From UHGV virus genome UHGV-0156988: a stretch of DNA of 34,441 bases; one strand, given 5' to 3'. Source of the DNA: a virus. The notes beneath the pieces are model-generated. The model was not told the origin of the DNA. It saw only the letters and a program-made list of their open reading frames with translations, and did not search any database. The translations under genes were made by a program, and so were the position numbers. This document shows, one piece after another, positions 3,017 through 32,575 of the stretch. Positions within the stretch are counted from its first letter, which is position 1; each line of letters starts with the position of its first letter.

Positions 3017-3265
3017 TCATGCAGCGTTGCTCACAGGACGATATACACGTTGCTGAACAGGAGGTTTTTTACCCTGGAACTCTGCCGGGCTTGCTGCCTG
3101 ACGTTCATCAAGCCAACGCTCAACTTCATCACGGTTCCATGCGCAGCGTTTGTCAGTGATATACCAGCGTTTAGGAAATTCCCCTGCGCGCTCCATACGG
3201 TCTATAGTGCTCCATGACAGTGGCACCACCGCCAGGAGTTCCTTCTTACCTAATGCACCTTTCAT
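3017..3265 (-). CDS. AlpA-family DNA-binding protein (excisionase / prophage regulator)
   Basis: 82 aa; PLSWSTIDRMERAGEFP...WNRDEVERWL pattern typical of AlpA/Xis-like small HTH proteins; SD GAGAGGT before ATG. Confidence 0.7.
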   Translation of the reverse strand: MKGALGKKELLAVVPLSWSTIDRMERAGEFPKRWYITDKRCAWNRDEVERWLDERQAASPAEFQGKKPPVQQRVYRPVSNAA

Positions 3266-5525: not shown

Positions 5526-5544
5526 AACTTGTTACCTCGGTCTG

Positions 5545-5622
5545 TTACCGTTGAGGTAATAATTATGCGTATATGGTTTGATGTCAATAGATATGAGTTA
5601 AAAAAATTACCCGTTAGGTAAT
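5545..5622 (-). promoter_or_regulatory. Leftward early promoter bracketed by two TTACC-N5-GGTAA operator sites
   Basis: Sites at 5545-5559 and 5608-5622; on the minus strand TTGACA (5583-5588) and CATAAT (5562-5567) with 15-nt spacer lie between them. Confidence 0.5.
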
Positions 5623-5678: not shown

Positions 5679-6263
5679 TTATTGTTTGTTTTTTTCGTTC
5701 TGGTTGATGACAAATTCAATGTAACTTTCGATCTTTGCTTTCTCGGTTTCGGGTAACAATGCGTAGCGCGAGCGGTCATAGTTGATGGTTGCAGGGTCGT
5801 GCGGGTGAATAAGTAATTCATAGCCGTGACGCCCGAATGCGGATGCCACATTCTCCAGGGTGGAAATGGAAACGCTAACCTCATTGTTTAACAGGCGGCT
5901 GATTGTCACCTGGGCGACGCCGGATGCGCGGTGTAGTTTTCCCTGCGTTGAAAGGTCGCGGCTTTCGCTCATCCAGCGTTCCAGGTTGTGAGCCGCCAGC
6001 TGACCTATATCGCTCGGGCCGACAGGCTGAAAACCTTCCTGAGAAAGCGAGCGATCGATATCAAGCCAGTTACGGGGTTTATTGGCGGCAGCTTCAATTT
6101 TTCGCGCAACCTGGTCGCCGATAACCTTCTTGCCAAGAGCCCAGCGGTTTACCAGATTTGCCTGAGTTCCAAGTTTTTCTGCCATCCGCGTCTGAACACC
6201 ATTGAATTCACGGTCGATCAAGTCGTTGAGATTTTGCCTGCGGACGTCTTGGATACTTTTCAT
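5679..6263 (-). CDS. Prophage repressor candidate with two HTH-like segments and no S24 peptidase domain
   Basis: 194 aa; HTH-like segments (TRMAEKLGTQANLVNRW and VAQVTISRLLNNEVSVSISTLENVASAFG); divergent from cro-like gene across an operator cluster; own terminator. Confidence 0.6.
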   Translation of the reverse strand: MKSIQDVRRQNLNDLIDREFNGVQTRMAEKLGTQANLVNRWALGKKVIGDQVARKIEAAANKPRNWLDIDRSLSQEGFQPVGPSDIGQLAAHNLERWMSESRDLSTQGKLHRASGVAQVTISRLLNNEVSVSISTLENVASAFGRHGYELLIHPHDPATINYDRSRYALLPETEKAKIESYIEFVINQNEKNKQ

Positions 6264-6318
6264 TTTCTGGAAAATCGCCTCATATATGAATCAGTAGATG
6301 ATTCAATTTAAAGCAATA

Positions 6319-6381
6319 TTACCCAACAGGTAAATGCACCCCATAGGTAACTATCCTTGATTTTTGTTACCTTATGGGTGA
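6319..6381. promoter_or_regulatory. Operator cluster between divergent repressor and cro-like genes (three sites)
   Basis: TTACC-CAACA-GGTAA 6319-6333 (perfect); GCACC-CCATA-GGTAA 6336-6350; TTACC-TTATG-GGTGA 6367-6381; AT-rich inverted repeat 6384-6405 before cro-like start. Confidence 0.55.
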
Positions 6382-6417: not shown

Positions 6418-6648
6418 ATGAGCGATAACGAACATTTCGATTTCAAAAAGCACTGGCTTGCACTTACTCCGGATGAGCGTGAAGCCTTCGCACAGGAAGC
6501 CGGAACGACGAGTCACTATATCCAGACTCACTTAACAGGTAAGCGCAAAATGCCAGGTAAAGTATTGATGAATGGGCTTTTTAAAGCCTGTAAAACAAGA
6601 CAATGGCTGCGCTCAAAAGCAGAACTGGCATACTTCTTCTACTCATGA
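6418..6648 (+). CDS. Cro/CII-like small HTH regulator
   Basis: 76 aa, first rightward gene after operator cluster; HTH-like segment FAQEAGTTSHYIQTHLTGKR. Confidence 0.55.
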   Translation: MSDNEHFDFKKHWLALTPDEREAFAQEAGTTSHYIQTHLTGKRKMPGKVLMNGLFKACKTRQWLRSKAELAYFFYS

Positions 6649-6692: not shown

Positions 6693-6703
6693 CATATCTA
6701 TTC

Positions 6704-6718
6704 GTACCTCAAAGGTAA
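6704..6718. promoter_or_regulatory. Single operator-like site GTACC-N5-GGTAA
   Basis: One-mismatch copy of the TTACC-N5-GGTAA palindrome immediately after the terminator. Confidence 0.4.
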
Positions 6719-6798
6719 TAAAAAACCAAATCTGGTTGATCTTTTTTTTGTGTCAGCACAAAATAACCGTAATCCCAATACTAATAACAGGGCTTACC

Positions 6799-8637: not shown

Positions 8638-8649
8638 ACGCCTCGACAA

Positions 8650-8726
8650 TTACCTGTTAGGTAATAAAATATTCTAAAATCTATTGATTTCGTGTCTTAT
8701 GTGGTTTTTAATTACCTCAGAGGTAA
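8650..8726 (+). promoter_or_regulatory. Promoter region bracketed by two perfect TTACC-N5-GGTAA sites
   Basis: Sites 8650-8664 and 8712-8726, centres 62 bp apart; TTGATT at 8684-8689 between them; downstream site overlaps the RBS of the 8730 gene. Confidence 0.5.
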
Positions 8727-8729
8727 ATC

Positions 8730-10767: not shown

Positions 10768-11765
10768 GCACTATCACAAGAGAATGGCTGCAGCAGGCTA
10801 TCAACGATTATGAAAGCGTTCGTGATGAGCTTCCTTTCGGGCTTGATGATTACCAGGGGAATATCCTGGCTGCCCTGCGTATCGCACTGGCATCGCTGGA
10901 ATCAGAGCCGGTGGCGTGGTTGCTGTCAGGAGGCGGGGCAAAAAACAACGTCAGCTTCGATAGTGGCAATGCTTATGCCGACCCGCTGCGAGAAGTAACG
11001 CCGCTTTACACCGCCCCGCCAGCGCCGGTATCTGTGCCCGCTGCGATGGAAATTGATGATGACTTTGACAGCGCGTTTGAACACGGAAAAGCTGTCGGCT
11101 GGAACGCCTATCGCGCCGCCATGCTTCAGGCCGAACCTGTAAGTAATAGTGATGAGTTACCGCTGGACTATCTGCAAGGACACAAAGACGGCCTGGAGTG
11201 GGCTGCACAACAGGCAGAGGCCAATCATCCGCAAACAGGTGACTGGTTGTACGATGACCCAATCGAGCTTGCCAGGGCGATTCGCAAAGGTCCGGATATT
11301 CCTGAATTTAAGTCAGTATCTGTTGATGAGGATGATAACTTCTACTCGTGGTTTGGCAGGTTCTGGTATGAAAATTATCAGAAAAATAATTACACAACAT
11401 CTGCAAAACAGATGCTTGGTACGATGGCTGAATTTGCCTATAGGGCAGGTAGAGAGTCGGCAGCGCTGGCTGGCAACTCTCCGGTAATTCCGGATGGTTG
11501 GATAAGCTGTAGTGAGCTAATGCCAGATGATGGTCAGCACGTAATTATTTTATGTGATGGCGCATTCGTTCTTTATGCGCAATATCGAGACGGAGAGTTT
11601 TTCGATATTGTCCGCAATGGTGATGAATTTTTCGAAACACAGAGTCGCAATGTAACCCACTGGATGCCGCTACCAGAACCGCCGCAGGGGGTGAAGTCAG
11701 CGTTTGAACATGGAATGCAGCGTTACGCCGGTGCTATGCAAAAACTGTCTGAAGGTGATAAGTGA
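10764..11765 (+). CDS. DUF551-domain prophage protein
   Basis: 333 aa; C-terminal W..C.E..P..G..V....DG region resembles DUF551 as recalled. Confidence 0.5.
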   Translation: MSTITREWLQQAINDYESVRDELPFGLDDYQGNILAALRIALASLESEPVAWLLSGGGAKNNVSFDSGNAYADPLREVTPLYTAPPAPVSVPAAMEIDDDFDSAFEHGKAVGWNAYRAAMLQAEPVSNSDELPLDYLQGHKDGLEWAAQQAEANHPQTGDWLYDDPIELARAIRKGPDIPEFKSVSVDEDDNFYSWFGRFWYENYQKNNYTTSAKQMLGTMAEFAYRAGRESAALAGNSPVIPDGWISCSELMPDDGQHVIILCDGAFVLYAQYRDGEFFDIVRNGDEFFETQSRNVTHWMPLPEPPQGVKSAFEHGMQRYAGAMQKLSEGDK

Positions 11766-11921
11766 TGGATTATCTCTTACTTTTCTACTCTGGAGGCGTC
11801 TTAGGCTGCATGCCTTTTCACTGGCAACTTCGTCGCAACGAGAAGGTCATGTATCGAGTCATAAATACCGTCATCTGCTCCGCCATCTGGCCGATATTGC
11901 AAACTCCCAAGGTGAATATCA

Positions 11922-12260
11922 ATGGCTAAATCCGCAGCAGAACGCAAAGCCGCTCAGAGAGCAAGACAAGCTGCATCTGGTGTGCGTAAGCTGGAAATTG
12001 TGCTTGATGCTCAGGAAATTGAAATGCTGGAGCGTAACTGTGCCACTCGTCGCCCCGGGCGTGCACCTTACGAATTTGGTGAGTATATAGCGTTACTGAT
12101 CCGCCAGGATGATGCACGTGTGCGCGGGCGTATAAAATCGATCAGCAGAAAACGTTGCGGTAAGTGCGGCGAGAGAGTTCCAGTTAATTCATGCCCGTGT
12201 AATGGTGACTCGCAATGCTGGGTGACTAAAGGCTGGCATGAAACGAAATTAATAGTGTGA
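11922..12260 (+). CDS. Hypothetical DNA-binding protein, RHH-like N-terminus plus Cys4 zinc ribbon
   Basis: 112 aa; basic helical N-terminus (AERKAAQRARQAASGVRKLEIVLD) and C-terminal CGKCG...CPC cluster; SD AAGGTGAAT; stop lies inside TGTGACATGTCACG motif. Confidence 0.5.
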   Translation: MAKSAAERKAAQRARQAASGVRKLEIVLDAQEIEMLERNCATRRPGRAPYEFGEYIALLIRQDDARVRGRIKSISRKRCGKCGERVPVNSCPCNGDSQCWVTKGWHETKLIV

Positions 12261-12309
12261 CATGTCACGAGTAGATTATGCATGATGAATTTGACGGGTT
12301 TTGAATACT

Positions 12310-12335
12310 GCCGCCAACTATGGCGGCTTTATTTT
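12310..12335 (+). terminator. Rho-independent terminator upstream of terminase operon
   Basis: GCCGCCA-ACTA-TGGCGGC hairpin followed by TTTATTTT. Confidence 0.6.
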
Positions 12336-12346
12336 GCATGGTACTA

Positions 12347-12379
12347 TTACCACAACGGTAACTATTACCACGGTGGTTA
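12347..12379 (+). promoter_or_regulatory. Two adjacent operator sites immediately upstream of terS
   Basis: TTACC-ACAAC-GGTAA 12347-12361 (perfect) and TTACC-ACGGT-GGTTA 12365-12379; second site overlaps terS start codon. Confidence 0.5.
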
Positions 12380-12975
12380 TGATGTCTGCTGAACCTAAAA
12401 CCTATAAACGCAAATCAACGCAATTTAAGCCACTAACAGCAATGCAGGAGGCTTATTGCCTGTCATACATCAAAACGCCTGAAAACCAGACTCAGGCAGC
12501 GATTAACGCAGGATTCTCCCCAAATACAGCGGCAGTTAAAGCCAGTGTCATGATGCGTGATGAACGCATTAAAAAACGGATTGCCGAGTTGATGGAGGAG
12601 CGCAACAAACGAATGCGCGTCAGTGCTGATTACGTTCTCATGCGCCTGGTGGAGATCGACCAGATGGACGTGATTGATATCCTCAACGACGATGGGAGTC
12701 TTAAGCCAATCCGCGAGTGGCCGAAAATATGGCGCACTACGCTTAGCGGCTTTGATCTGTCATCGACCATCATGAACATGAACGAGGATTCGATAGAGAC
12801 AATCCTCAAAAAAATTAAATGGCCTGACAAGGTGAAGAACCTCGAACTGATTGGCAAGCACGTCGATGTCAATGCATTCAAAGAACGCCTGGATGTTAAT
12901 GTGAATGTGACAATTGCTGATCGCATAGCGGCAGCCAGGAAGCGACTCAAAGAACGTCAGGATGGTAATCAGTGA
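12379..12975 (+). CDS. Terminase small subunit
   Basis: About 199 aa; immediately upstream of and overlapping terminase large subunit; start moved from ORF-track 12301 because a terminator and operators lie in that extension. Confidence 0.7.
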   Translation: MMSAEPKTYKRKSTQFKPLTAMQEAYCLSYIKTPENQTQAAINAGFSPNTAAVKASVMMRDERIKKRIAELMEERNKRMRVSADYVLMRLVEIDQMDVIDILNDDGSLKPIREWPKIWRTTLSGFDLSSTIMNMNEDSIETILKKIKWPDKVKNLELIGKHVDVNAFKERLDVNVNVTIADRIAAARKRLKERQDGNQ

Positions 12976-14447
12976 CAGATACAGCGTTATCTCCTGAAGA
13001 GCAGTTGATCGAGGATATTGCAGGGTTCACTCACGATCCGCTTGGCTATGCCCTCTATGCGTTCCCGTGGGGGGAAGAGGGGACTGAACTGGCACATGCC
13101 ACCGGCCCACATCAGTGGCAGGCTGATGCGTTCCGAGAGATACGTGATCACCTGCAGAATCCAGAGACGCGCTATCAGCCGCTTATGCTGGCACGCGCTT
13201 CTGGTCACGGTATTGGTAAATCCGCATTCATCTCAATGCTGATCAACTGGGGCATGTCCACTTGCGAGGATTGTAAGGTCGTGGTGACCGCCAACACCGA
13301 CAACCAGCTACGAACGAAGACCTGGCCGGAAATTATCAAGTGGTCGAACCTTGCCATCACGAAAGACTGGTTTACCTGTACCGCTACCGCGATGTACAGC
13401 AATGATCCTGGGCACGACAAGCGGTGGCGAGCTGACGCAATCCCCTGGTCTGAGCACAACACTGAGGCATTCGCCGGACTACACAACGAGCGCAAACGCA
13501 TCATCGTGGTTTTCGACGAAGCATCCAACATTGCCGATCTGGTGTGGGAGGTAGCAGAGGGTGCGCTGACGGACGAAGACACCGAAATCATCTGGGTGGC
13601 GTTCGGGAACCCGACGCGTAATACCGGGCGTTTCCGCGAATGTTTCCGCAAATATAAACACCGCTGGAAAACTGCGCAGATTGACAGCCGGACGGTGGAA
13701 GGCACCAACAAACAGCAGTTGCAGAAATGGGTTGATGACTACGGGGAAGACAGCGACTTCGTTAAAATCCGTGTGCGCGGCATATTCCCTGATGCATCTG
13801 AATTGCAGTTTATCCCTACCGGTCTTACTGACGAGGCAATGAAACGGGTGGTAACTGCTGCGCAGGTGGCACATGCTCCGGTGATAATCGGCGTTGACCC
13901 TGCATACTCCGGTGTTGATGACGCGGTGATATACCTGCGGCAGGGGCTGCACAGTAAGGTGCTGTGGACCGGCAACAAGACCACTGACGATCTGATTATG
14001 GCAAAGCGTATCGCTGACTTTGAAGACCAGTATCAGGCTGACGCGGTGTTCATCGACTTCGGTTACGGTACCGGGCTGAAGTCAATCGGTGACGGTTGGG
14101 GGCGCACATGGCAACTTGTTCCGTTCGGTGGTGCGTCCACTGACCCGCAGATGCTTAACAAGCGTGGGGAGATGTTCAACTCATGCAAGACATGGCTGAG
14201 GCTGGGCGGCATGCTGGATGACCAGGAAACAGCGGACGACCTGTCGGCGGCAGAGTACAAAGTTCGAGTGGACGGTAAAATCGTTATCGAACCGAAGGAA
14301 GATATCAAGGAGCGGCTTGGGCGTTCGCCGGGTAAAGGCGATGCGCTACTGCTGACGTTTGCGTTCCCTGTGTCTAAGCGTCTGCGAATTCCCGGGCAGC
14401 AGAACCAGCAAGGCAAGGCCATTACAGATTACGATCCCTATGCTTAA
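12972..14447 (+). CDS. Terminase large subunit
   Basis: 491 aa; Walker A-like ARASGHGIGKS and C-terminal nuclease region; GTG start overlapping terS stop. Confidence 0.88.
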   Translation: MTDTALSPEEQLIEDIAGFTHDPLGYALYAFPWGEEGTELAHATGPHQWQADAFREIRDHLQNPETRYQPLMLARASGHGIGKSAFISMLINWGMSTCEDCKVVVTANTDNQLRTKTWPEIIKWSNLAITKDWFTCTATAMYSNDPGHDKRWRADAIPWSEHNTEAFAGLHNERKRIIVVFDEASNIADLVWEVAEGALTDEDTEIIWVAFGNPTRNTGRFRECFRKYKHRWKTAQIDSRTVEGTNKQQLQKWVDDYGEDSDFVKIRVRGIFPDASELQFIPTGLTDEAMKRVVTAAQVAHAPVIIGVDPAYSGVDDAVIYLRQGLHSKVLWTGNKTTDDLIMAKRIADFEDQYQADAVFIDFGYGTGLKSIGDGWGRTWQLVPFGGASTDPQMLNKRGEMFNSCKTWLRLGGMLDDQETADDLSAAEYKVRVDGKIVIEPKEDIKERLGRSPGKGDALLLTFAFPVSKRLRIPGQQNQQGKAITDYDPYA

Positions 14448-14497: not shown

Positions 14498-14517
14498 AGC
14501 CAGCTCATCGGCTGGCT
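14498..14517. terminator. Bidirectional terminator hairpin between convergent terL and 14538-14909 gene
   Basis: AGCCAGC-TCATCG-GCTGGCT hairpin; T-rich on minus strand; immediately followed by TGTGACATGTCACG at 14521-14534. Confidence 0.5.
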
Positions 14518-14537
14518 GTTTGTGACATGTCACGGTG

Positions 14538-14909
14538 TTATTGCTCGCTTAACTTCTGCTTCAGCAAGTAACCTTCAAGCATCCAGATTTTGTTTACAGC
14601 ATTCTGCCGGGCAATCTTCCGACCAATTTCCGCATCAAAGTTTTCCGGGCTTGCACAGGCGCTCTCTCCGGTGACGGTGAAGCCGTTGCGCAGCACCAGA
14701 ACGCAGAACGTCAGCAGAGAAAGTGATTCGTGCGGCTGGTAGTTTACCTCTCCGCCAGTATGTTTCGCTTTTATGGCTACGCCAAAGACACCATCTTCTG
14801 CTGTGAAATATGCCTCCTGAGCAATAATGCTCTCGATATGGTCTGGCGTAACGCGCGGCGCGGCTAAACCTTTAGCCTGAATTTCAGATTCAATGTCTTT
14901 GTCACTCAT
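14538..14909 (-). CDS. Hypothetical protein (possibly Gp49/Sf6 gp66-like family)
   Basis: 123 aa; reverse orientation to flanking late genes; SD AAGGTGAG; family call is a loose recollection. Confidence 0.5.
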   Translation of the reverse strand: MSDKDIESEIQAKGLAAPRVTPDHIESIIAQEAYFTAEDGVFGVAIKAKHTGGEVNYQPHESLSLLTFCVLVLRNGFTVTGESACASPENFDAEIGRKIARQNAVNKIWMLEGYLLKQKLSEQ

Positions 14910-14925
14910 AGTCTAATCTCACCTT

Positions 14926-14949
14926 AAAAAAATGCCCGGCGAACCGGGC
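14926..14949 (-). terminator. Rho-independent terminator between tRNA and 14538-14909 gene
   Basis: On minus strand GCCCGG-TTCG-CCGGGC followed by T7, which runs directly into the SD of the downstream gene. Confidence 0.5.
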
Positions 14950-15112
14950 GAACTGGAAGCAATGAGTTATGCCTTCCGTGGCTGTACTGGTTTACAGCAT
15001 GAAGTCATCGCAATGGCGTCCTGCTGTAAAAAGGGCGGTGATAGTCCTTCAAGGGAAACCATCACCGCCAAGCCCCTGGAACTTCTGGCATCACGGTCCT
15101 TAGGCGTGATTC

Positions 15113-15189
15113 TGGCGTGGCATGCAGGATTCGAACCTGCGACCAACCGCTTAGAAGGCGGTTGCTCTGTCCAACTGAGCTAATGCCAC
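15113..15189 (-). tRNA. tRNA-Arg, anticodon UCU
   Basis: 77-nt cloverleaf folded by hand: acceptor GTGGCAT/ATGCCAC, D-arm GCTC/GAGC, anticodon stem ACCGC/GCGGT with loop CTTCTAA, T-arm GCAGG-TTCGAAT-CCTGC, discriminator G, encoded CCA. Confidence 0.88.
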
Positions 15190-15511
15190 AACGCTGAGAG
15201 CACTTAGCCTGTTAAGGCGCCACACTTTGTCGCGGCTCCATAAATGCTCTCATCGTTGCACCCTCGTCTCTTCCGAGGCGTCACACCGAATCGCCGGGAT
15301 GGTGAATCCCCGTGCGCGGAATAAAACCGCTCGACTTGCACATTCCGGCTACCTGGTTCGTTTGCCCGAGCAAGGGAGGGTGCCCCTTAAACGTATCCAG
15401 ACCGCTATCGGCGCATGTGCCATACGCCGTACTGCTCAAAATAAAATCTCACTCCACCTGTTCAATTTAACGACAAGCCAGTCAGGTTAATAACAGGAAT
15501 GCACTCTCTGC

Positions 15512-15526
15512 TTACCTGAAAGGTAA
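15512..15526 (+). promoter_or_regulatory. Operator site upstream of virion operon
   Basis: Perfect TTACC-TGAAA-GGTAA about 90 nt upstream of the first virion gene. Confidence 0.45.
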
Positions 15527-15616
15527 TAATTCGTGCGTTAAATGTCAACTGCCTACGATAAATAAATCATATGTGGTTAAATTGGTAATAATTTAATTGC
15601 GTACGGAGTCATTGAT

Positions 15617-15837: not shown

Positions 15838-17517
15838 ATGGCGGAAACAACTAAAGAGCGATTGAACAAACAGTTCGCACAACTTGAAAGCGAGCGTCAG
15901 TCGTTCGAGCCGCACTGGCGCGAGTTGAGTGATTACATCAACCCGCGTGGTTCCCGCTTTCTGACTTCTGAGGTCAACCGTAACGATCGACGCAATACAC
16001 GCATTATTGATTCGACCGGGACTATGGCGGCGCGCACTCTCGCCAGCGGCATGATGTCAGGCATCACAAGCCCCGCGCGTCCGTGGTTTCGCCTGGCTAC
16101 GCCAGATCCTGAAATGATGGATTATGGCCCTGTTAAGTTGTGGCTTGAGGCGGTGCAGAACCGTATGAACGATATGTTCAATAAGTCGAATCTCTATCAG
16201 TCGCTGCCGCAGTTATACGGAAGCCTCGGCACATACAGCACTGGTGCAATGGCGGTGCTGGAGGATGACGAGGACATCATTCGCACAATGCCATTCCCGA
16301 TAGGCAGTTACTACCTGGCTAACTCACCTCGTGGCAGTGTGGACACCTGTTTTCGCAAGTTCTCTATGACTGTTCGTCAGCTTGTTCAGGAATTCGGACT
16401 AAATAACGTCAGCGAATCCGTAAAAAGCATGTGGGAAAGCGGCACCTACGAGAAGTGGATTGAAGTGATGCATTCGGTTTACCCGAACATTGACCGCGAT
16501 ACATCGAAGCTGGATAGCAAGAACAAGCCATTCAAATCGGTTTATTACGAGGTTGGTGGCGATAACGACAAGTTGTTGCGTGAGTCCGGATTCGATGAGT
16601 TTCCAATTATGGCTCCGCGCTGGGAAGTTAACGGCGAAGATGTTTATGGATCATCATGCCCGGGCATGTTGGCGCTTGGACCTGTTAAAGCATTGCAGCT
16701 TCTTCAGAAGCGCAAGTCGCAGTTGATTGATAAAGCCACCAATCCGCCGATGGTTGCTCCGACTTCCCTCAAGAATCAGCGCGCCTCCCTTCTTCCTGGC
16801 GACATCACGTATATCGATCAGATTACTGGTCAGGATGGTTTCAGGCCTGCTTATCTGGTTAACCCCAGTACAGCAGATCTGGTAGCAGACATTCAGGATA
16901 CTCGCCAAATCATTAACAGCGCCTACTTTGTCGATCTGTTCATGATGTTGCAGAACATTAATACCCGCTCGATGCCTGTTGAAGCGGTGATCGAAATGAA
17001 AGAAGAAAAACTTCTGATGTTGGGGCCGGTTCTGGAGCGTCTGAACGACGAATGTCTTAACCCTCTCATTGACCGCGCTTTCTCGATGATGGTGCGTAAA
17101 AACATGCTGCCGCCACCGCCTGACGCGATGGAAGGTATGCCCCTGAAGGTCGAATACATTTCCGTCATGGCTCAGGCGCAGAAGTCTATCGGCCTGTCCA
17201 GTCTGGCGTCCACGGTTAACTTCATTGGTCAACTTGCGAAAGCGAAACCAGAAGCTCTCGACAAGCTCAACGTTGATCAGGCGATCGATGCATTCGCTGA
17301 TATGTCCGGAGTGTCTCCAACCGTCATTGTTCCGCAGGAACAGGTTGAGCAGGCTCGCCAGCAACGGGCACAGCAGCAACAGCAGCAACAAATGATGGCG
17401 ATGGGGATGGCGGCGGCACAGGGTGCCAAGACGCTAAGCGAAGCTAAAACTTCGGATCCGAGTGTGTTGTCAGCTATGGCGAATGCAGTTAGTGGTCAGG
17501 GTGGGCAATCACAATGA
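15838..17517 (+). CDS. Portal / head-to-tail connector protein, T7 gp8-like
   Basis: 559 aa; N-terminal and Gln-rich C-terminal tail (QQRAQQQQQQQMMAMGMAAAQG) resemble T7 gp8 as recalled. Confidence 0.8.
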   Translation: MAETTKERLNKQFAQLESERQSFEPHWRELSDYINPRGSRFLTSEVNRNDRRNTRIIDSTGTMAARTLASGMMSGITSPARPWFRLATPDPEMMDYGPVKLWLEAVQNRMNDMFNKSNLYQSLPQLYGSLGTYSTGAMAVLEDDEDIIRTMPFPIGSYYLANSPRGSVDTCFRKFSMTVRQLVQEFGLNNVSESVKSMWESGTYEKWIEVMHSVYPNIDRDTSKLDSKNKPFKSVYYEVGGDNDKLLRESGFDEFPIMAPRWEVNGEDVYGSSCPGMLALGPVKALQLLQKRKSQLIDKATNPPMVAPTSLKNQRASLLPGDITYIDQITGQDGFRPAYLVNPSTADLVADIQDTRQIINSAYFVDLFMMLQNINTRSMPVEAVIEMKEEKLLMLGPVLERLNDECLNPLIDRAFSMMVRKNMLPPPPDAMEGMPLKVEYISVMAQAQKSIGLSSLASTVNFIGQLAKAKPEALDKLNVDQAIDAFADMSGVSPTVIVPQEQVEQARQQRAQQQQQQQMMAMGMAAAQGAKTLSEAKTSDPSVLSAMANAVSGQGGQSQ

Positions 17518-17810
17518 CAGATTACGAAGACGATCAACTGAAAGAAGAAAACGACCGTAAGCAACGTGACATGGCACAGCGTGAAATTGATGACATTCGC
17601 TTTGTCATGAGCAGTGAACAGGGGCGTCGCGTTGTCTGGTCGGTGCTGGAGAAAGGCCGTGTGTTTTCCGCTATCTCACCGATGGACGCTATGGCAATGG
17701 CATTTAATGAGGGGCAACGCAATCTGGCGCTGGAACTGTTTCAGCGCGTTATGGCGCATTGCCCTGAACAGTATTTGAAGATGGCCAAAGAGGCCAGTGA
17801 ACAGGAGTGA
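17514..17810 (+). CDS. Hypothetical protein
   Basis: 98 aa; ATGA overlap with portal stop. Confidence 0.5.
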   Translation: MTDYEDDQLKEENDRKQRDMAQREIDDIRFVMSSEQGRRVVWSVLEKGRVFSAISPMDAMAMAFNEGQRNLALELFQRVMAHCPEQYLKMAKEASEQE

Positions 17811-27316: not shown

Positions 27317-29115
27317 GTTACTTTGGCCTTAATCCAGTAAACCAGAATCAGCAGCTTGACGAAGCAGCATCAAATCCAGCTGGCTTTAACAGCGATGTTG
27401 GTTTTTTCGACAATGCTGTAGGAGCGGCATTGTCTGGTTTGTACTCCGGGCTGGTGGCAAAGCCAGATCAGTTGCTATGGGCAGGGATGGATAAAATCGT
27501 ATCCCCGATTGCTCAGTTTGTTAACGAAAACACCTCGCTCAATGACACTTCAGTTTCATACATTGCTGAGCAGAGAAAACTAGCAGAGCAGCAGGTTAAG
27601 CGGCTGACGCCTGATGCCGCGACAACCGGAACCGCCGGGCAGGTCCTTTATGGGTTGTTCGATATGGGCGGGCAGGCTGTTGTTGGTACAACGCTCGGTG
27701 GTCCGGTCGGAGGTGCTGCGGCGGTAACTTCGCTACAGGGTTTTTCTGAGTTTGAACGGCTGACAGCACAGGGTGTTGATTTCAGGACGGCGCAGGAAGC
27801 GGGATTAGTGCAGGGTATTACTGCTGGTGCCGGAACACTGATCCCTATGAGCCTCGGGTTACGTGCTGGTGGTGCGCTGGCGGAAGGTGTGGCGGCTCAG
27901 CTTGCGCGGACGGGTGAAAGTTCAGTGCGACGCGCCGCAGCAACAGCAGTACGTGCAACGCCAGATATTGCCTATGCCGCAGGTACAAATATTGCGTTCG
28001 GTATGGCACAGCGTGGGCTTACTGCAAAAACGCTTCGTGATGGTGGCTATAGCGAAATGGCTAATCAGTATGATGTGTTGGATCGACAGGCAATTGCTAT
28101 TGATGCTGTTCTTGGAGTGGCGTTTGGTGGTGTCGGCAGATTTATTAACTCTCGCGGCGAGTCTACAAGCGCACCAAATTTTTCACCAGTTGATGTCGAT
28201 GCTGCACTGGCGGCGAATGCCGCTCATCATGCTGAAATTGATATTGCTCCCGGTGTGCCGATCAACGTGCTTTCGCGTAATTCGCACATTCAGGCTCTGC
28301 GAAAAGCCATGTCTGATGTTAGCCAGGGGATACCTGTAGACGTTGCCAGCATTGTTGAGTCTGCATCTTTCAGTGAAATTCCTGGGCGCAAGAGTCTGCT
28401 TTCTCAGGCAGTTAATGAGGCTCTGTCATCTGTAGATGATGGAGTAACGGCGCGCGCTATAGAAAATCGGTTGCTTGAAGAACAGGCCGCGCAGCTTTTG
28501 CCGCGTGGCGATAGACAGGTTTACCAGTCTGAAATCGCTAATAGCCAACGAATTATTGAAAATCTCACTGAACAGCGCGCACAAATTCTTGCAGAAGAGC
28601 CAACCGGTAGCGGTAAAGCTTTGTCTCGTGCTCGATCAGATAAACAGGCCAGACTTCGCGATATTGATCAACGAATCCGGCAGGCACAAGAACGCCTGGA
28701 GTTTTCCCGTAACGCGTTGGCACCGCACGAGCCTGGCGGTCAGTTTTTTGAAGCTCGAGCAGAACTGGCACGACGACAGCAGGCAGAAAGTGAACTTAAT
28801 GCTCAGGCTGTTTCATTCTATAAAACAGCAGAGGTCAGGACGCCAGACGAAGTAGCTCCTTTTGAGCCCGGTAAGATATTGCAACAGACAGAACAAAAAA
28901 TGATGGCAGATCCGGCAGGAGATATTGATCTGCGTATAGCTGAAGACTCGCTGCTTGAATCTCCGGACATGATAATCACCGTGCTGGATGATGATGGTAA
29001 TCCACAATCGCGCAGTGCGCGTGAAGTACTGGATGAAGCGAACAGGGAAAGTGAGCAGGCAATACAGGATTCCAGCCTGTTTGATGTTGCTGTGGCGTGT
29101 TTCTTGAGAGGTTAA
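27313..29115 (+). CDS. Internal virion / ejection protein (possible N-terminal part of a split gp16 analogue)
   Basis: 600 aa; ATGA overlap with upstream gene; Ala/Gly-rich N-terminal half. Confidence 0.5.
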   Translation: MSYFGLNPVNQNQQLDEAASNPAGFNSDVGFFDNAVGAALSGLYSGLVAKPDQLLWAGMDKIVSPIAQFVNENTSLNDTSVSYIAEQRKLAEQQVKRLTPDAATTGTAGQVLYGLFDMGGQAVVGTTLGGPVGGAAAVTSLQGFSEFERLTAQGVDFRTAQEAGLVQGITAGAGTLIPMSLGLRAGGALAEGVAAQLARTGESSVRRAAATAVRATPDIAYAAGTNIAFGMAQRGLTAKTLRDGGYSEMANQYDVLDRQAIAIDAVLGVAFGGVGRFINSRGESTSAPNFSPVDVDAALAANAAHHAEIDIAPGVPINVLSRNSHIQALRKAMSDVSQGIPVDVASIVESASFSEIPGRKSLLSQAVNEALSSVDDGVTARAIENRLLEEQAAQLLPRGDRQVYQSEIANSQRIIENLTEQRAQILAEEPTGSGKALSRARSDKQARLRDIDQRIRQAQERLEFSRNALAPHEPGGQFFEARAELARRQQAESELNAQAVSFYKTAEVRTPDEVAPFEPGKILQQTEQKMMADPAGDIDLRIAEDSLLESPDMIITVLDDDGNPQSRSAREVLDEANRESEQAIQDSSLFDVAVACFLRG

Positions 29116-31790: not shown

Positions 31791-32087
31791 ATGCAAGCTA
31801 TAGGATTCATTGTTTATATCGTCGTTGGTCTTTTTCAGTTGGCAGCAATTATGGCTGGGCTTGAATCATGGTGGGGATTGCACTGGATAATTGCAGCCCC
31901 CATTGCTTTCATCGTGAGCTATATTCCATTTGTTGGAGCGATTGTTGGTATGGTTGGCGCTGTGGATGTATGGCGGTGGGAGTGGTGGCAGGCTGGCCTT
32001 CTCTTCTTTGGTGGGATCATCTTTGCTATTGTCTGCGGTGGAATGTCATCATTTTTCGAATGGCTATCATTCAGAAAAAGAGCGTGA
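31791..32087 (+). CDS. Small integral membrane protein, three predicted TM segments
   Basis: 98 aa, SD AGGTGA; Gly/Ile/Val/Trp-rich hydrophobic stretches with basic C-terminus FRKRA. Confidence 0.6.
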   Translation: MQAIGFIVYIVVGLFQLAAIMAGLESWWGLHWIIAAPIAFIVSYIPFVGAIVGMVGAVDVWRWEWWQAGLLFFGGIIFAIVCGGMSSFFEWLSFRKRA

Positions 32088-32095
32088 CATGTCAC

Positions 32096-32113
32096 AGGCC
32101 GCTCTTGCGGCCT
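32096..32113. terminator. Bidirectional terminator hairpin between convergent genes
   Basis: AGGCCGC-TCTT-GCGGCCT; TTTAAATTT on plus side, CTCTTTTTCT on minus side; abuts GTGACATGTCAC at 32084-32095. Confidence 0.55.
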
Positions 32114-32119
32114 TTAAAT

Positions 32120-32377
32120 TTACCGGGTTTGTTTTCGTAATTGTTCGGCACAATAGTCGAGATGTGTTTGCAGATCCCGCATAGACATCTGTGAGCTGGT
32201 GACGTAGTTAATCAGTGCAGTCAGTTCGGCAAGTGGGCCATCGACATTAAATCCATCCTTATCGAGATCCCGGAGTAATTTCATCAAGTGCGATCCTTCC
32301 ACCAGTGACCTGACGCCTCCCGGCGTGTGAATCCTTTCGGTAAATCCGTCTTCCAGTGGATAGTGATACTGCTGCAT
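32120..32377 (-). CDS. LexA-controlled small acidic protein, candidate antirepressor
   Basis: 85 aa from MQQYHY with SD GGAGAAG; LexA box at 32398-32417 overlaps a TGtATAAAT extended -10; own terminator. Confidence 0.5.
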   Translation of the reverse strand: MQQYHYPLEDGFTERIHTPGGVRSLVEGSHLMKLLRDLDKDGFNVDGPLAELTALINYVTSSQMSMRDLQTHLDYCAEQLRKQTR

Positions 32378-32397
32378 CTTAATCTTCTCCATGCAAT

Positions 32398-32417: not shown

Positions 32418-32454
32418 GCAAATAATTTGTTTGCTATCCAGCACGTTTTGCAAA

Positions 32455-32469
32455 TTACCAGAAAGGTAA
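32455..32469 (+). promoter_or_regulatory. Operator site upstream of tailspike gene
   Basis: Perfect TTACC-AGAAA-GGTAA between the LexA-controlled gene and the tailspike gene. Confidence 0.45.
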
Positions 32470-32575
32470 TATCTATTCGTATCCATAGTTTTTCTATGCA
32501 TATATGGTTTTTCAGGTAATAGAATGGATGGGACTGCATGCGCGATGGGCGCACAAGCTATCCGGAGATAATGAC

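Follow-up and report, generated by a model that had tools for sequence, protein, structure and literature searches.

A predicted ribbon-helix-helix protein family of phages and the 12-bp palindrome that accompanies its gene

With regard to DNA recognition, the closest described counterpart of the system analysed here is MatP, the ribbon-helix-helix (RHH) protein of the Escherichia coli Ter macrodomain, which acts on an isolated palindrome, matS (GTGACRNYGTCAC, 13 bp), with the same half-sites as the 12-bp palindrome GTGAC-N2-GTCAC of the present study. This palindrome recurs in UHGV-0156988, a virus genome stretch of 34,441 nucleotides (called the window, by which we mean the whole stretch), where one copy overlaps the end of a gene for a 112-residue protein with a predicted RHH fold and a C-terminal cluster of cysteines. 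Other small RHH regulators (Arc and Mnt of P22, CopG, TraM, ParD/MazE, IncFII CopB/RepB-RCR_reg and YbfE) have their operators at their own promoters, where dimers of dimers usually occupy tandem sites. In genomic logic, the nearest case is lambda Q (with Q21 and Q82), a small DNA-binding protein with a zinc-binding motif that is encoded by the last early-right gene, which is followed by the DNA site of the protein and a terminator gating the next module. P2 Ogr and P4 Delta are likewise small four-cysteine (Cys4) phage proteins acting in late control, Ogr from sites at about -55 of late promoters. Finally, TraR and YbiI belong to the DksA/TraR-type C4 zinc-finger proteins that bind the secondary channel of RNA polymerase, and they have in common with the 112-residue protein the pattern of a long helix, C-x2-C-G-x2-(I/L)-P ... 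G-x3-C, and a helix.

The locus differs from each of these systems. Compared with MatP, with which it has no sequence homology (hhalign probability 0.5%, and no hmmsearch match), the spacer between the arms is 2 bp in all of about 50 sites instead of the 3 bp of matS, and spacer-3 sites of the matS type are absent from the window, epsilon15, ZF40 and N15; in addition, the protein is phage-encoded, has 112 residues and carries a Cys4 module in place of a four-helix bundle or C-terminal coiled coil. Whereas the small RHH regulators occupy promoter operators, here single 12-bp palindromes are found at the gene's 3' end and where other units end, and a presumed zinc module is fused to the RHH domain. 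No homology to Q lambda, Q82 or Q21 is present, and the site does not appear to be placed in a promoter with a sigma-dependent pause. Similarity to Ogr is equally lacking (hhalign 0.3%), and a P2-like Yersinia phage carries a member of the family as an extra gene, beside the region that holds tin/old in P2. DksA scores no better (0.4%). TraR is aligned at 73% probability with residues 47-106, an alignment covering nearly the whole of TraR, but the likely ligands here would be C79, C82, C91 and C99, and the helix aligned to the N-terminal helix of TraR is RHH helix 2, which therefore could not enter the polymerase channel.

Co-occurrence of the gene family and the palindrome

The 112-residue protein matches PHROG 536 ('transcriptional regulator') with E=1.6e-54, its residues 1-111 aligning with positions 2-114 of the 115 in the profile. 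Members of this group are epsilon15 gp49, phiV10 p55, TL-2011b gp20, ZF40 gp22 and N15 gp46, further homologues occur in phiKO2 and in Yersinia, Vibrio and Aeromonas phages, and the family comprises 726 homologous clusters at 90% identity (154 at 50%). The palindrome occurs with this gene across unrelated phages and changes along with the protein subfamily, and for this reason we consider it the probable binding site of the protein. That the protein is a site-specific DNA binder with GTGAC-N2-GTCAC as its operator is, judging from these sequence comparisons, highly probable.

In the window, the 14-mer TGTGACATGTCACG occurs exactly three times, at 12256, 14521 and, in reverse, 32083 (sites 1 to 3), and a one-mismatch copy starts at 17565. 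Its 12-bp core GTGACATGTCAC is a perfect palindrome, with three copies (12257, 14522 and 32084) against a chance expectation of approximately 0.002 for 34 kb. In epsilon15, three copies are located at equivalent places despite a DNA identity of only about 75%. ZF40, an unrelated Pectobacterium myovirus, contains three exact copies, one of them 3 nt past the stop codon of its homologue, and N15 contains three copies of GTGAC-TG/CA-GTCAC, one of which (centre TG) includes the stop codon of gene 46. One exact copy and an adjacent one-mismatch copy are found in the P2-like Yersinia phage, and three copies with other centres in Vibrio phage K233, so that podo-, myo-, P2-like and N15-like phages are among the carriers of the site. 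The 112-residue open reading frame (ORF) is the only one of the window that is common to N15, ZF40, the P2-like Yersinia phage, Vibrio K233 and a Pseudomonas-type contig, while lambda has neither the gene nor the palindrome. Arms at spacers of 0, 1 and 3 to 6 were not found in the window, epsilon15, ZF40, N15 or the Yersinia phage, and a single spacer-3 site was found in Vibrio K233.

A set of 21 bacterial loci from more than 15 genera was collected via the protein alone. The exact 12-mer was present in 18 of these loci and spacer-2 arms in 20, with site and gene stop codon overlapping in the majority. When all 1024 possible 5-nt arms were counted at spacer 2 in 27 family-positive sequences (649 kb), GTGAC was recovered in 26 of them with a total of 50 sites; an arm had 0.73 sites on average, and the second-ranking arm occurred in eight sequences. 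In the Providencia and Rouxiella loci, the site is missing at the gene end and present elsewhere. Only one family-positive locus (L011, 2495-2900) lacks a site altogether; its gene shows 87% identity across residues 1-109, with a different C-terminus and a terminator immediately behind it. Conversely, among 120 viral stretches carrying TGTGACATGTCACA, at least 32 encode a member of the family; this count is a lower bound, as only a short stretch of each contig was read. A locus search with protein P0244 gave no relative. The phiV10 record NC_007804 ends at 39104, at the stop codon of the homologue, and is cut through the palindrome, which is why scans of this linear record miss site 1.

A distant subfamily (29% identical), represented by 18 viral contigs with a total of 270 kb that were found via the protein, is accompanied by another palindrome, GTTAC-N2-GTAAC, as well as by mixed GTGAC/GTAAC sites. 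The combined form GTKAC-N2-GTMAC was counted 86 times in these 270 kb, while shuffled sequence gave 0.74. At most of the loci, the stop codon of the gene lies in the site or at most about 9 nt from it, and a second site lies at the start codon. These bracketing sites (contigs L156-L173) are approximately 365 bp apart, at positions of about -362 and 0 as counted from the end of the gene, the start site falling in the codons V-T-G-N, and further sites recur every 2-3 kb across the terminase and portal genes. Between subfamilies with different site centres, the residues of the RHH strand differ as well.

Within cII-like genes, the site is retained in the frame xGT GAC ATG TCA Cxx; the amino acid preceding it is R or C, and the one following it is R or Q. 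Since the 12-mer is fixed while the flanking residues change, selection appears to act on the DNA and not on the protein. The palindrome is located there at the codons ..DMS.. (ZF40 7622; L023 6138; L029 5732). At the equivalent place in lambda cII (38543-38557, VVDDDMA), the old 'ice' (inceptor) annotation is found, with the 5-2-5 inverted repeat GTCGT-TG-ACGAC.

Several other identities of the motif were considered and rejected. The motif is not a CI operator, the repressor operators being of a different sequence (ATTACC-N5-GGTAAT), and a CRP site is ruled out by the spacing, which is TGTGA-N4-TCACA here and N6 in the CRP consensus. As the -35 element of a conserved promoter, GTGACA-17/18-(-10) is a weak match in the window and epsilon15 that is not conserved in four other loci (L013, L016, L024 and L025). 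Likewise discarded was the idea that the stretch from motif to terminator forms a conserved RNA structure or an antiterminator, as the spacer varies in length and sequence and the fold consists of two separate hairpins only. A pac signal tied to the type of terminase does not agree with a site that goes with the gene whether the phage has a terminase of the lambda type, the P2 type or another type. In the literature, we found no paper containing the motif and, among those retrieved, none testing any member of the family; the ZX5 paper concerns other regulators. As far as this search reached, the pair of site and protein is undescribed.

The protein, its sites and the phage genome

A first-pass annotation of the window had proposed that a small RHH-like or zinc-ribbon protein of 112 residues is encoded directly before the terminase operon, with its stop codon inside the first copy of the motif and with a terminator and two operators between the gene and terS. 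The reading frame is borne out by the ORF call and by the conservation of the PHROG 536 family, the TGA at 12258-12260 falls within TGTGACATGTCACG (12256-12269), and the terminator and both operators are located as described (Table 1). A Shine-Dalgarno-like AAGGTGA lies 7 nt upstream of the start codon, and the ATG overlaps the stop codon of an upstream 55-aa ORF (ATGGCTAA). The N-terminal half has the predicted beta-alpha-alpha fold of the RHH superfamily (strand at about residues 23-28, helices at 30-42 and 52-74) and a basic N-terminus, in which R8 and R13 are nearly invariant. In the C-terminal third, C79 and C82 are invariant, C99 is found in more than 90% of members and C91 is invariant among the closer members, and P87 and G95 stand among the conserved residues beside this cluster.

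Searches with the single protein against Pfam, NCBIfam and PDB gave no significant family, and the family as such is without a Pfam model. The AlphaFold model from the single sequence was unusable (predicted local distance difference test score, pLDDT, of 46), and Foldseek searches of PDB and BFVD returned nothing beyond weak RHH matches. With the family profile, the three best matches among PDB sequences were TraR twice (E 0.027) and YbiI (E 0.033), all of them borderline. The Pfam model zf-dskA_traR (PF01258) did not match any of 54 members or the C-terminal half alone at E values up to 10, and the second CxxC of the DksA/TraR finger is absent, with C91/C93 and C99 in its place and a residue other than Cys at +3. 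Because the Pfam model misses and the second CxxC is lacking, the C-terminal module is called TraR-like only tentatively. From the initial description, the RHH fold, the basic N-terminus and the Cys cluster are thereby retained, whereas 'zinc ribbon' is only loosely right, the best profile matches being TraR and YbiI with their DksA/TraR-type fingers. We class the protein as a putative RHH regulator with a fused zinc module and with sites at gene ends rather than at promoters.

Table 1 Features of the locus and of the palindrome sites in the window (strand given as + or -; a dot marks features without strand).
Feature	Position	Strand	Description
Gene for RHH and Cys-cluster protein	11922..12260	+	ORF with ATG start, 112 aa; PHROG 536
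Basic N-terminal helix and predicted RHH domain	11922..12143	+	residues ~1-74
C-terminal Cys-cluster domain (presumed zinc)	12156..12257	+	residues ~79-112; C79, C82, C91/C93, C99
Site 1, TGTGACATGTCACG	12256..12269	.	core GTGACATGTCAC at 12257-12268; presumed operator of the protein
Intrinsic terminator of the early-right unit	12310..12335	+	GCCGCCaactatGGCGGC and T-tract
Candidate extended -10 for terS, TGgTACTAT	12338..12346	+	read from sequence; inferred
Two CI-type operators, ATTACCACAACGGTAAC and ATTACCACGGTGGTTAT	12345..12379	.	12345-12361 (good) and 12363-12379 (degenerate); pattern ATTACC-N5-GGTAA(T/C)
Site 2, hairpin AGCCAGCtcatcGGCTGGCT and TGTGACATGTCACG	14498..14534	.	hairpin 14498-14517, then 3 nt, then motif 14521-14534; conserved arrangement
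One-mismatch copy GTGACATGGCAC	17566..17577	.	inside gene 17514-17810; weak site or chance
Site 3, CGTGACATGTCACA, and terminator AGGCCGCtcttGCGGCCT with TTAAATTT	32083..32121	.	motif 32083-32096; end of head/tail unit

All three sites of the window adjoin terminators at the 3' boundary of a rightward unit, namely the early-right, terS-terL and head/tail units, and none of them is placed like a promoter operator. The terminator following site 1 has a 7-bp stem with 6 GC pairs and a TTTATTTT tail, is supported by the RNA fold and is conserved in relatives, in which 23 to 54 nt separate the motif from the hairpin. Sites 2 and 3 lie at convergent gene junctions. Site 2 is situated between terL (+) and the ORF 14538-14909 (-), and its hairpin was scored as a terminator on the - strand only, though the A-rich and T-rich flanks look bidirectional by eye. 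The arrangement of hairpin and motif after terL is kept in epsilon15, phiV10 and six further loci (L009, L010, L012, L013, L015 and L017). Site 3 contains the TGA stop codon of the ORF 31791-32087, which converges with the ORF 32120-32392 (-), and has equivalents in epsilon15 (19517) and phiV10 (19493). The one-mismatch variant GTGACATGGCAC is retained in TL-2011b and phiV10.

The window represents a temperate phage of E. coli of the epsilon15/phiV10 type (Uetakevirus-like). Over 11909-12500, its DNA is 97-98% identical to that of phages PAS61, TL-2011b and ZX5, and 97% identical to phiV10 over the matching part of the latter. The map starts with the integrase and early-left genes, followed by a CI-like repressor gene (5679-6263, -), a cro-like gene at 6418, the replication genes and a small 'nin-like' block whose last gene is the 112-aa ORF. 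The late part consists of terS (12382-12975), terL (12972-14447), a leftward island, the head and tail genes and the tailspike gene. To our knowledge, no late-gene regulator has been identified for phages of the epsilon15/phiV10 type. The proposal that the 112-aa ORF is the only regulator-like gene before the late operon and that Q is absent holds in so far as none of the right-operon ORFs scanned gave a Pfam or PHROG match to Q. Two regulator-like genes are nevertheless present in the early-left operon, one PerC-like (2608-2907, -; E 5.6e-7) and one AlpA-like (3017-3265, -; E 3.1e-5), and both are further candidates for regulation of the lytic cycle.

The candidate extended -10 of terS directly follows the T-tract of the terminator, overlaps the first of the two CI-type operators and is without a -35 element; it was missed by a -35/-10 promoter scan, and its equivalents are TGtTACTAT in epsilon15 and TGtTATGAT in the Rahnella-type loci L024 and L025. 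Operators of the same type occur at 5606, 6318, 6703, 8649, 8711, 15511 and 32454, that is, at the immunity region and just before every rightward unit (replication, nin-like, terS, head and tailspike). In the epsilon15 record AY150271, 'repressor' protein_bind features before terS, the head genes and the tailspike gene match these sites. The sequence comparison indicates that the ATTACC-N5-GGTAAT sites are the prophage repressor (immunity) operators and not targets of the 112-residue protein. Since they precede every rightward unit, the whole lytic programme looks repressor-gated, and since terS appears to have its own extended -10 covered by a repressor operator, the architecture requires no activator for terS. 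The operators span 5544-5622, 6318-6334, 6703-6720, 8649-8665, 8711-8727, 12345-12379, 15511-15527 and 32454-32470, and those at 6703, 8649 and 12345 come directly after a terminator.

Among the neighbouring genes, the upstream ORF (11762-11929, +) encodes a hydrophobic 55-aa protein with a weak match to GhoT/OrtT membrane toxins (E 0.016, below the cutoff). It belongs to the variable side of a mosaic joint, given that similarity to related phages starts only at about 11909-11923. The leftward island between terL and the head genes extends over 14538-15600 and contains a tRNA-Arg(tct) at 15113-15189, and its ORF 14538-14909 (-; 123 aa) resembles phiV10 p03 and Sf6 gene 66. In L009 (10336-10420), L010 (10336-10420) and L015 (10541-10620), a strong promoter, TTGACT-17-TATACT, overlaps a LexA box (TACTGT-N8-ACAGTA) and is located 6 nt past the palindrome, which points to an SOS-controlled gene inserted between the family gene and terS. 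In the P2-like Yersinia phage vB_YenM_42.18 (8073-12561), an SMC-like gene of 2.6 kb, flanked by the family gene and its cluster of sites (11675 and 11708, with a half-site near 11741), takes the position of the tin/old anti-phage genes in P2 (30316-33380 of the P2 sequence, L154).

Possible action at the boundaries of transcription units

In the mechanism that we propose, an RHH dimer would recognise the 5-2-5 palindrome GTGAC-NN-GTCAC, and the C-terminal Cys4 module would offer a second interaction surface, for another dimer or for RNA polymerase. As the last product of the early-right operon, the protein would work on transcribing RNA polymerase at unit boundaries and not at promoters. In the preferred version, the accumulated protein would let the polymerase read through terminators, which would link the early-right unit with the terminase unit and the late units behind it and would add, with a delay, to the output of the repressor-controlled promoters. 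Boundary action is favoured because the sites lie beside terminators at unit ends, the protein is made last and, in both phage types, its gene directly precedes the terminator gating the next module. We assign a probability of roughly 40% to action on elongating polymerase at unit boundaries in the read-through version, while any action at terminators, and its direction (read-through or block), is speculative. The TraR-like module would be a candidate for the polymerase contact.

The comparison of loci is consistent with such a role. The cassette of gene, motif and intrinsic terminator is syntenic in epsilon15-like phages, where it precedes terS, and in lambdoid prophages, where it precedes ninB; the idea of a factor acting at the terminator, also voiced in the first-pass annotation, fits this arrangement. 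In the lambdoid prophages, ninB/orf follows the cassette at the position of lambda tR2, with a Q-like gene further downstream, and in the distant subfamily the order is stop codon, site, about 25 nt and terminator. A terminator-like hairpin was found within 70 nt of 35% of 136 non-redundant sites, compared with 16% of random positions, and the N15 site at 28550 is located about 115 nt upstream of an annotated terminator.

Several observations weigh against this interpretation. The other 65% of the 136 sites have no recognisable terminator nearby, and many sites are intragenic, e.g., in ZF40 gp08, in cII-like genes (ZF40 gp12), in N15 repA and in the terL-like genes of the distant subfamily. 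For rightward transcription, site 2 is past its hairpin, which leaves no way to load a factor before the terminator in that direction, and the variable distance of 0-55 nt between motif and terminator speaks against a fixed geometry. Each late unit has an operator-covered promoter, and the architecture does not need read-through. The similarity to TraR is borderline, with the Pfam model and the second CxxC both lacking, and the segment aligned to the TraR residues IPEARRK is not conserved. Binding of the palindrome is itself inferred. Moreover, family members are found alongside Q: Q-like genes coexist with the family in N15 (gp40), ZF40 (gp25) and the locus L016, and the P2-like phage carries a homologue too. 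Because of these occurrences in phages with Q or of the P2 group, the family is not a general late switch.

A narrower form of the read-through reading, in which RHH dimers on GTGAC-N2-GTCAC pads within operons and at their ends would hand the TraR-like zinc module to the passing polymerase, as a DNA-loaded elongation switch reading through terminators, appears quite unlikely in this full detail.

The alternative that survives best, possible if on the unlikely side, is the opposite outcome at the same boundaries: the bound dimer would stall polymerase as a roadblock or insulator, reinforce the boundaries, keep moron and late transcripts apart and act as an autoregulator. Its sites are indeed at convergent junctions and 3' ends and not at promoters, overlapping the gene's own stop codon in most lineages and bracketing the gene in the distant subfamily. 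Polymerase halted at the stop codon of the gene would produce non-stop transcripts, so that expression of the protein's own operon would fall, and in lambdoid members the sites in the early operon upstream of the gene (ZF40 gp08 and the cII-like gp12) could bring about feedback shut-off. The sites of the window, however, already have terminators, and in the distant subfamily sites lie along transcription inside essential late genes (terL-like), where a block would be harmful while the protein is present; a hard roadblock therefore fits poorly.

We also consider unlikely an architectural role or one in DNA transactions, similar to that of MatP at matS, in which dispersed palindromes would be bound, and perhaps bridged via the zinc module, for genome organisation, replication, segregation or packaging. 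Few dispersed sites per genome, many of them intragenic, a pair of sites flanking terS-terL and the occurrence of the family in the linear-plasmid prophages N15 and phiKO2 would suit such a role, and in the proteome of a telomere-phage lysogen a protein named 'gp46', possibly of the PHROG 536 family, was among nine phage proteins detected and was grouped with genome regulation and maintenance (PMC12042878). The absence of any sequence relation to MatP and the strict spacer of 2 instead of 3 argue against it, as do integrating phages such as epsilon15, which need no partition system, and a packaging role is made unlikely by a site that accompanies the gene in phages with unrelated terminases.

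Improbable, and the least likely among the roles considered for the protein itself, is that of a classical late activator replacing Q, as first suggested, which would recruit RNA polymerase from a position upstream of the terS promoter. The gene is the last one before terS in epsilon15-like phages, the window has no Q-like gene, site 1 precedes the candidate terS start by about 90 bp, and in L009, L010 and L015 the site is 6 nt upstream of the -35 element of the LexA-controlled promoter. Nevertheless, a terminator separates site 1 from the terS promoter, sites 2 and 3 do not precede promoters, no site lies ahead of the head or the tailspike unit, and homologues occur beside Q or in P2-type phages, away from terS. 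An epsilon15-type terS follows the cassette in 11 of the 21 loci found via the protein, so that about half of the loci are without it, and the reading as a Q-replacing activator is not supported. Very improbable, lastly, is a site for a host factor or an RNA element, with the palindrome riding along through its overlap with the stop codon: the motif RNA can form a small hairpin and the half-sites are those of matS, which a host protein recognises, but this hairpin has only 4-5 bp, unlinked extra copies lie 2-20 kb off in the same genomes, the Providencia and Rouxiella sites lie elsewhere than the gene end, lambda has none, and the site switches to GTTAC-N2-GTAAC along with the protein subfamily.

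In conclusion, a gene annotated as 'hypothetical' or 'transcriptional regulator' now becomes a testable pair of a protein family and a defined 12-bp site, with three sites per genome here, in a group of phages of which phiV10 serves as a reporter phage for E. coli O157:H7. Such conservation over widely differing phages, together with co-variation between subfamilies, is seldom seen with small phage regulators, and the matS-like half-sites with their shifted spacer provide a natural test case for the way in which RHH proteins gauge spacing. If the role is architectural, the protein would be a phage counterpart of MatP. If it acts on polymerase at terminators, it would represent a new type of phage developmental switch, and in the DNA-loaded form, if true, a Q-like timer made of unrelated parts that is present in podo-, myo-, sipho-, P2-like and telomere phages of gamma-proteobacteria.

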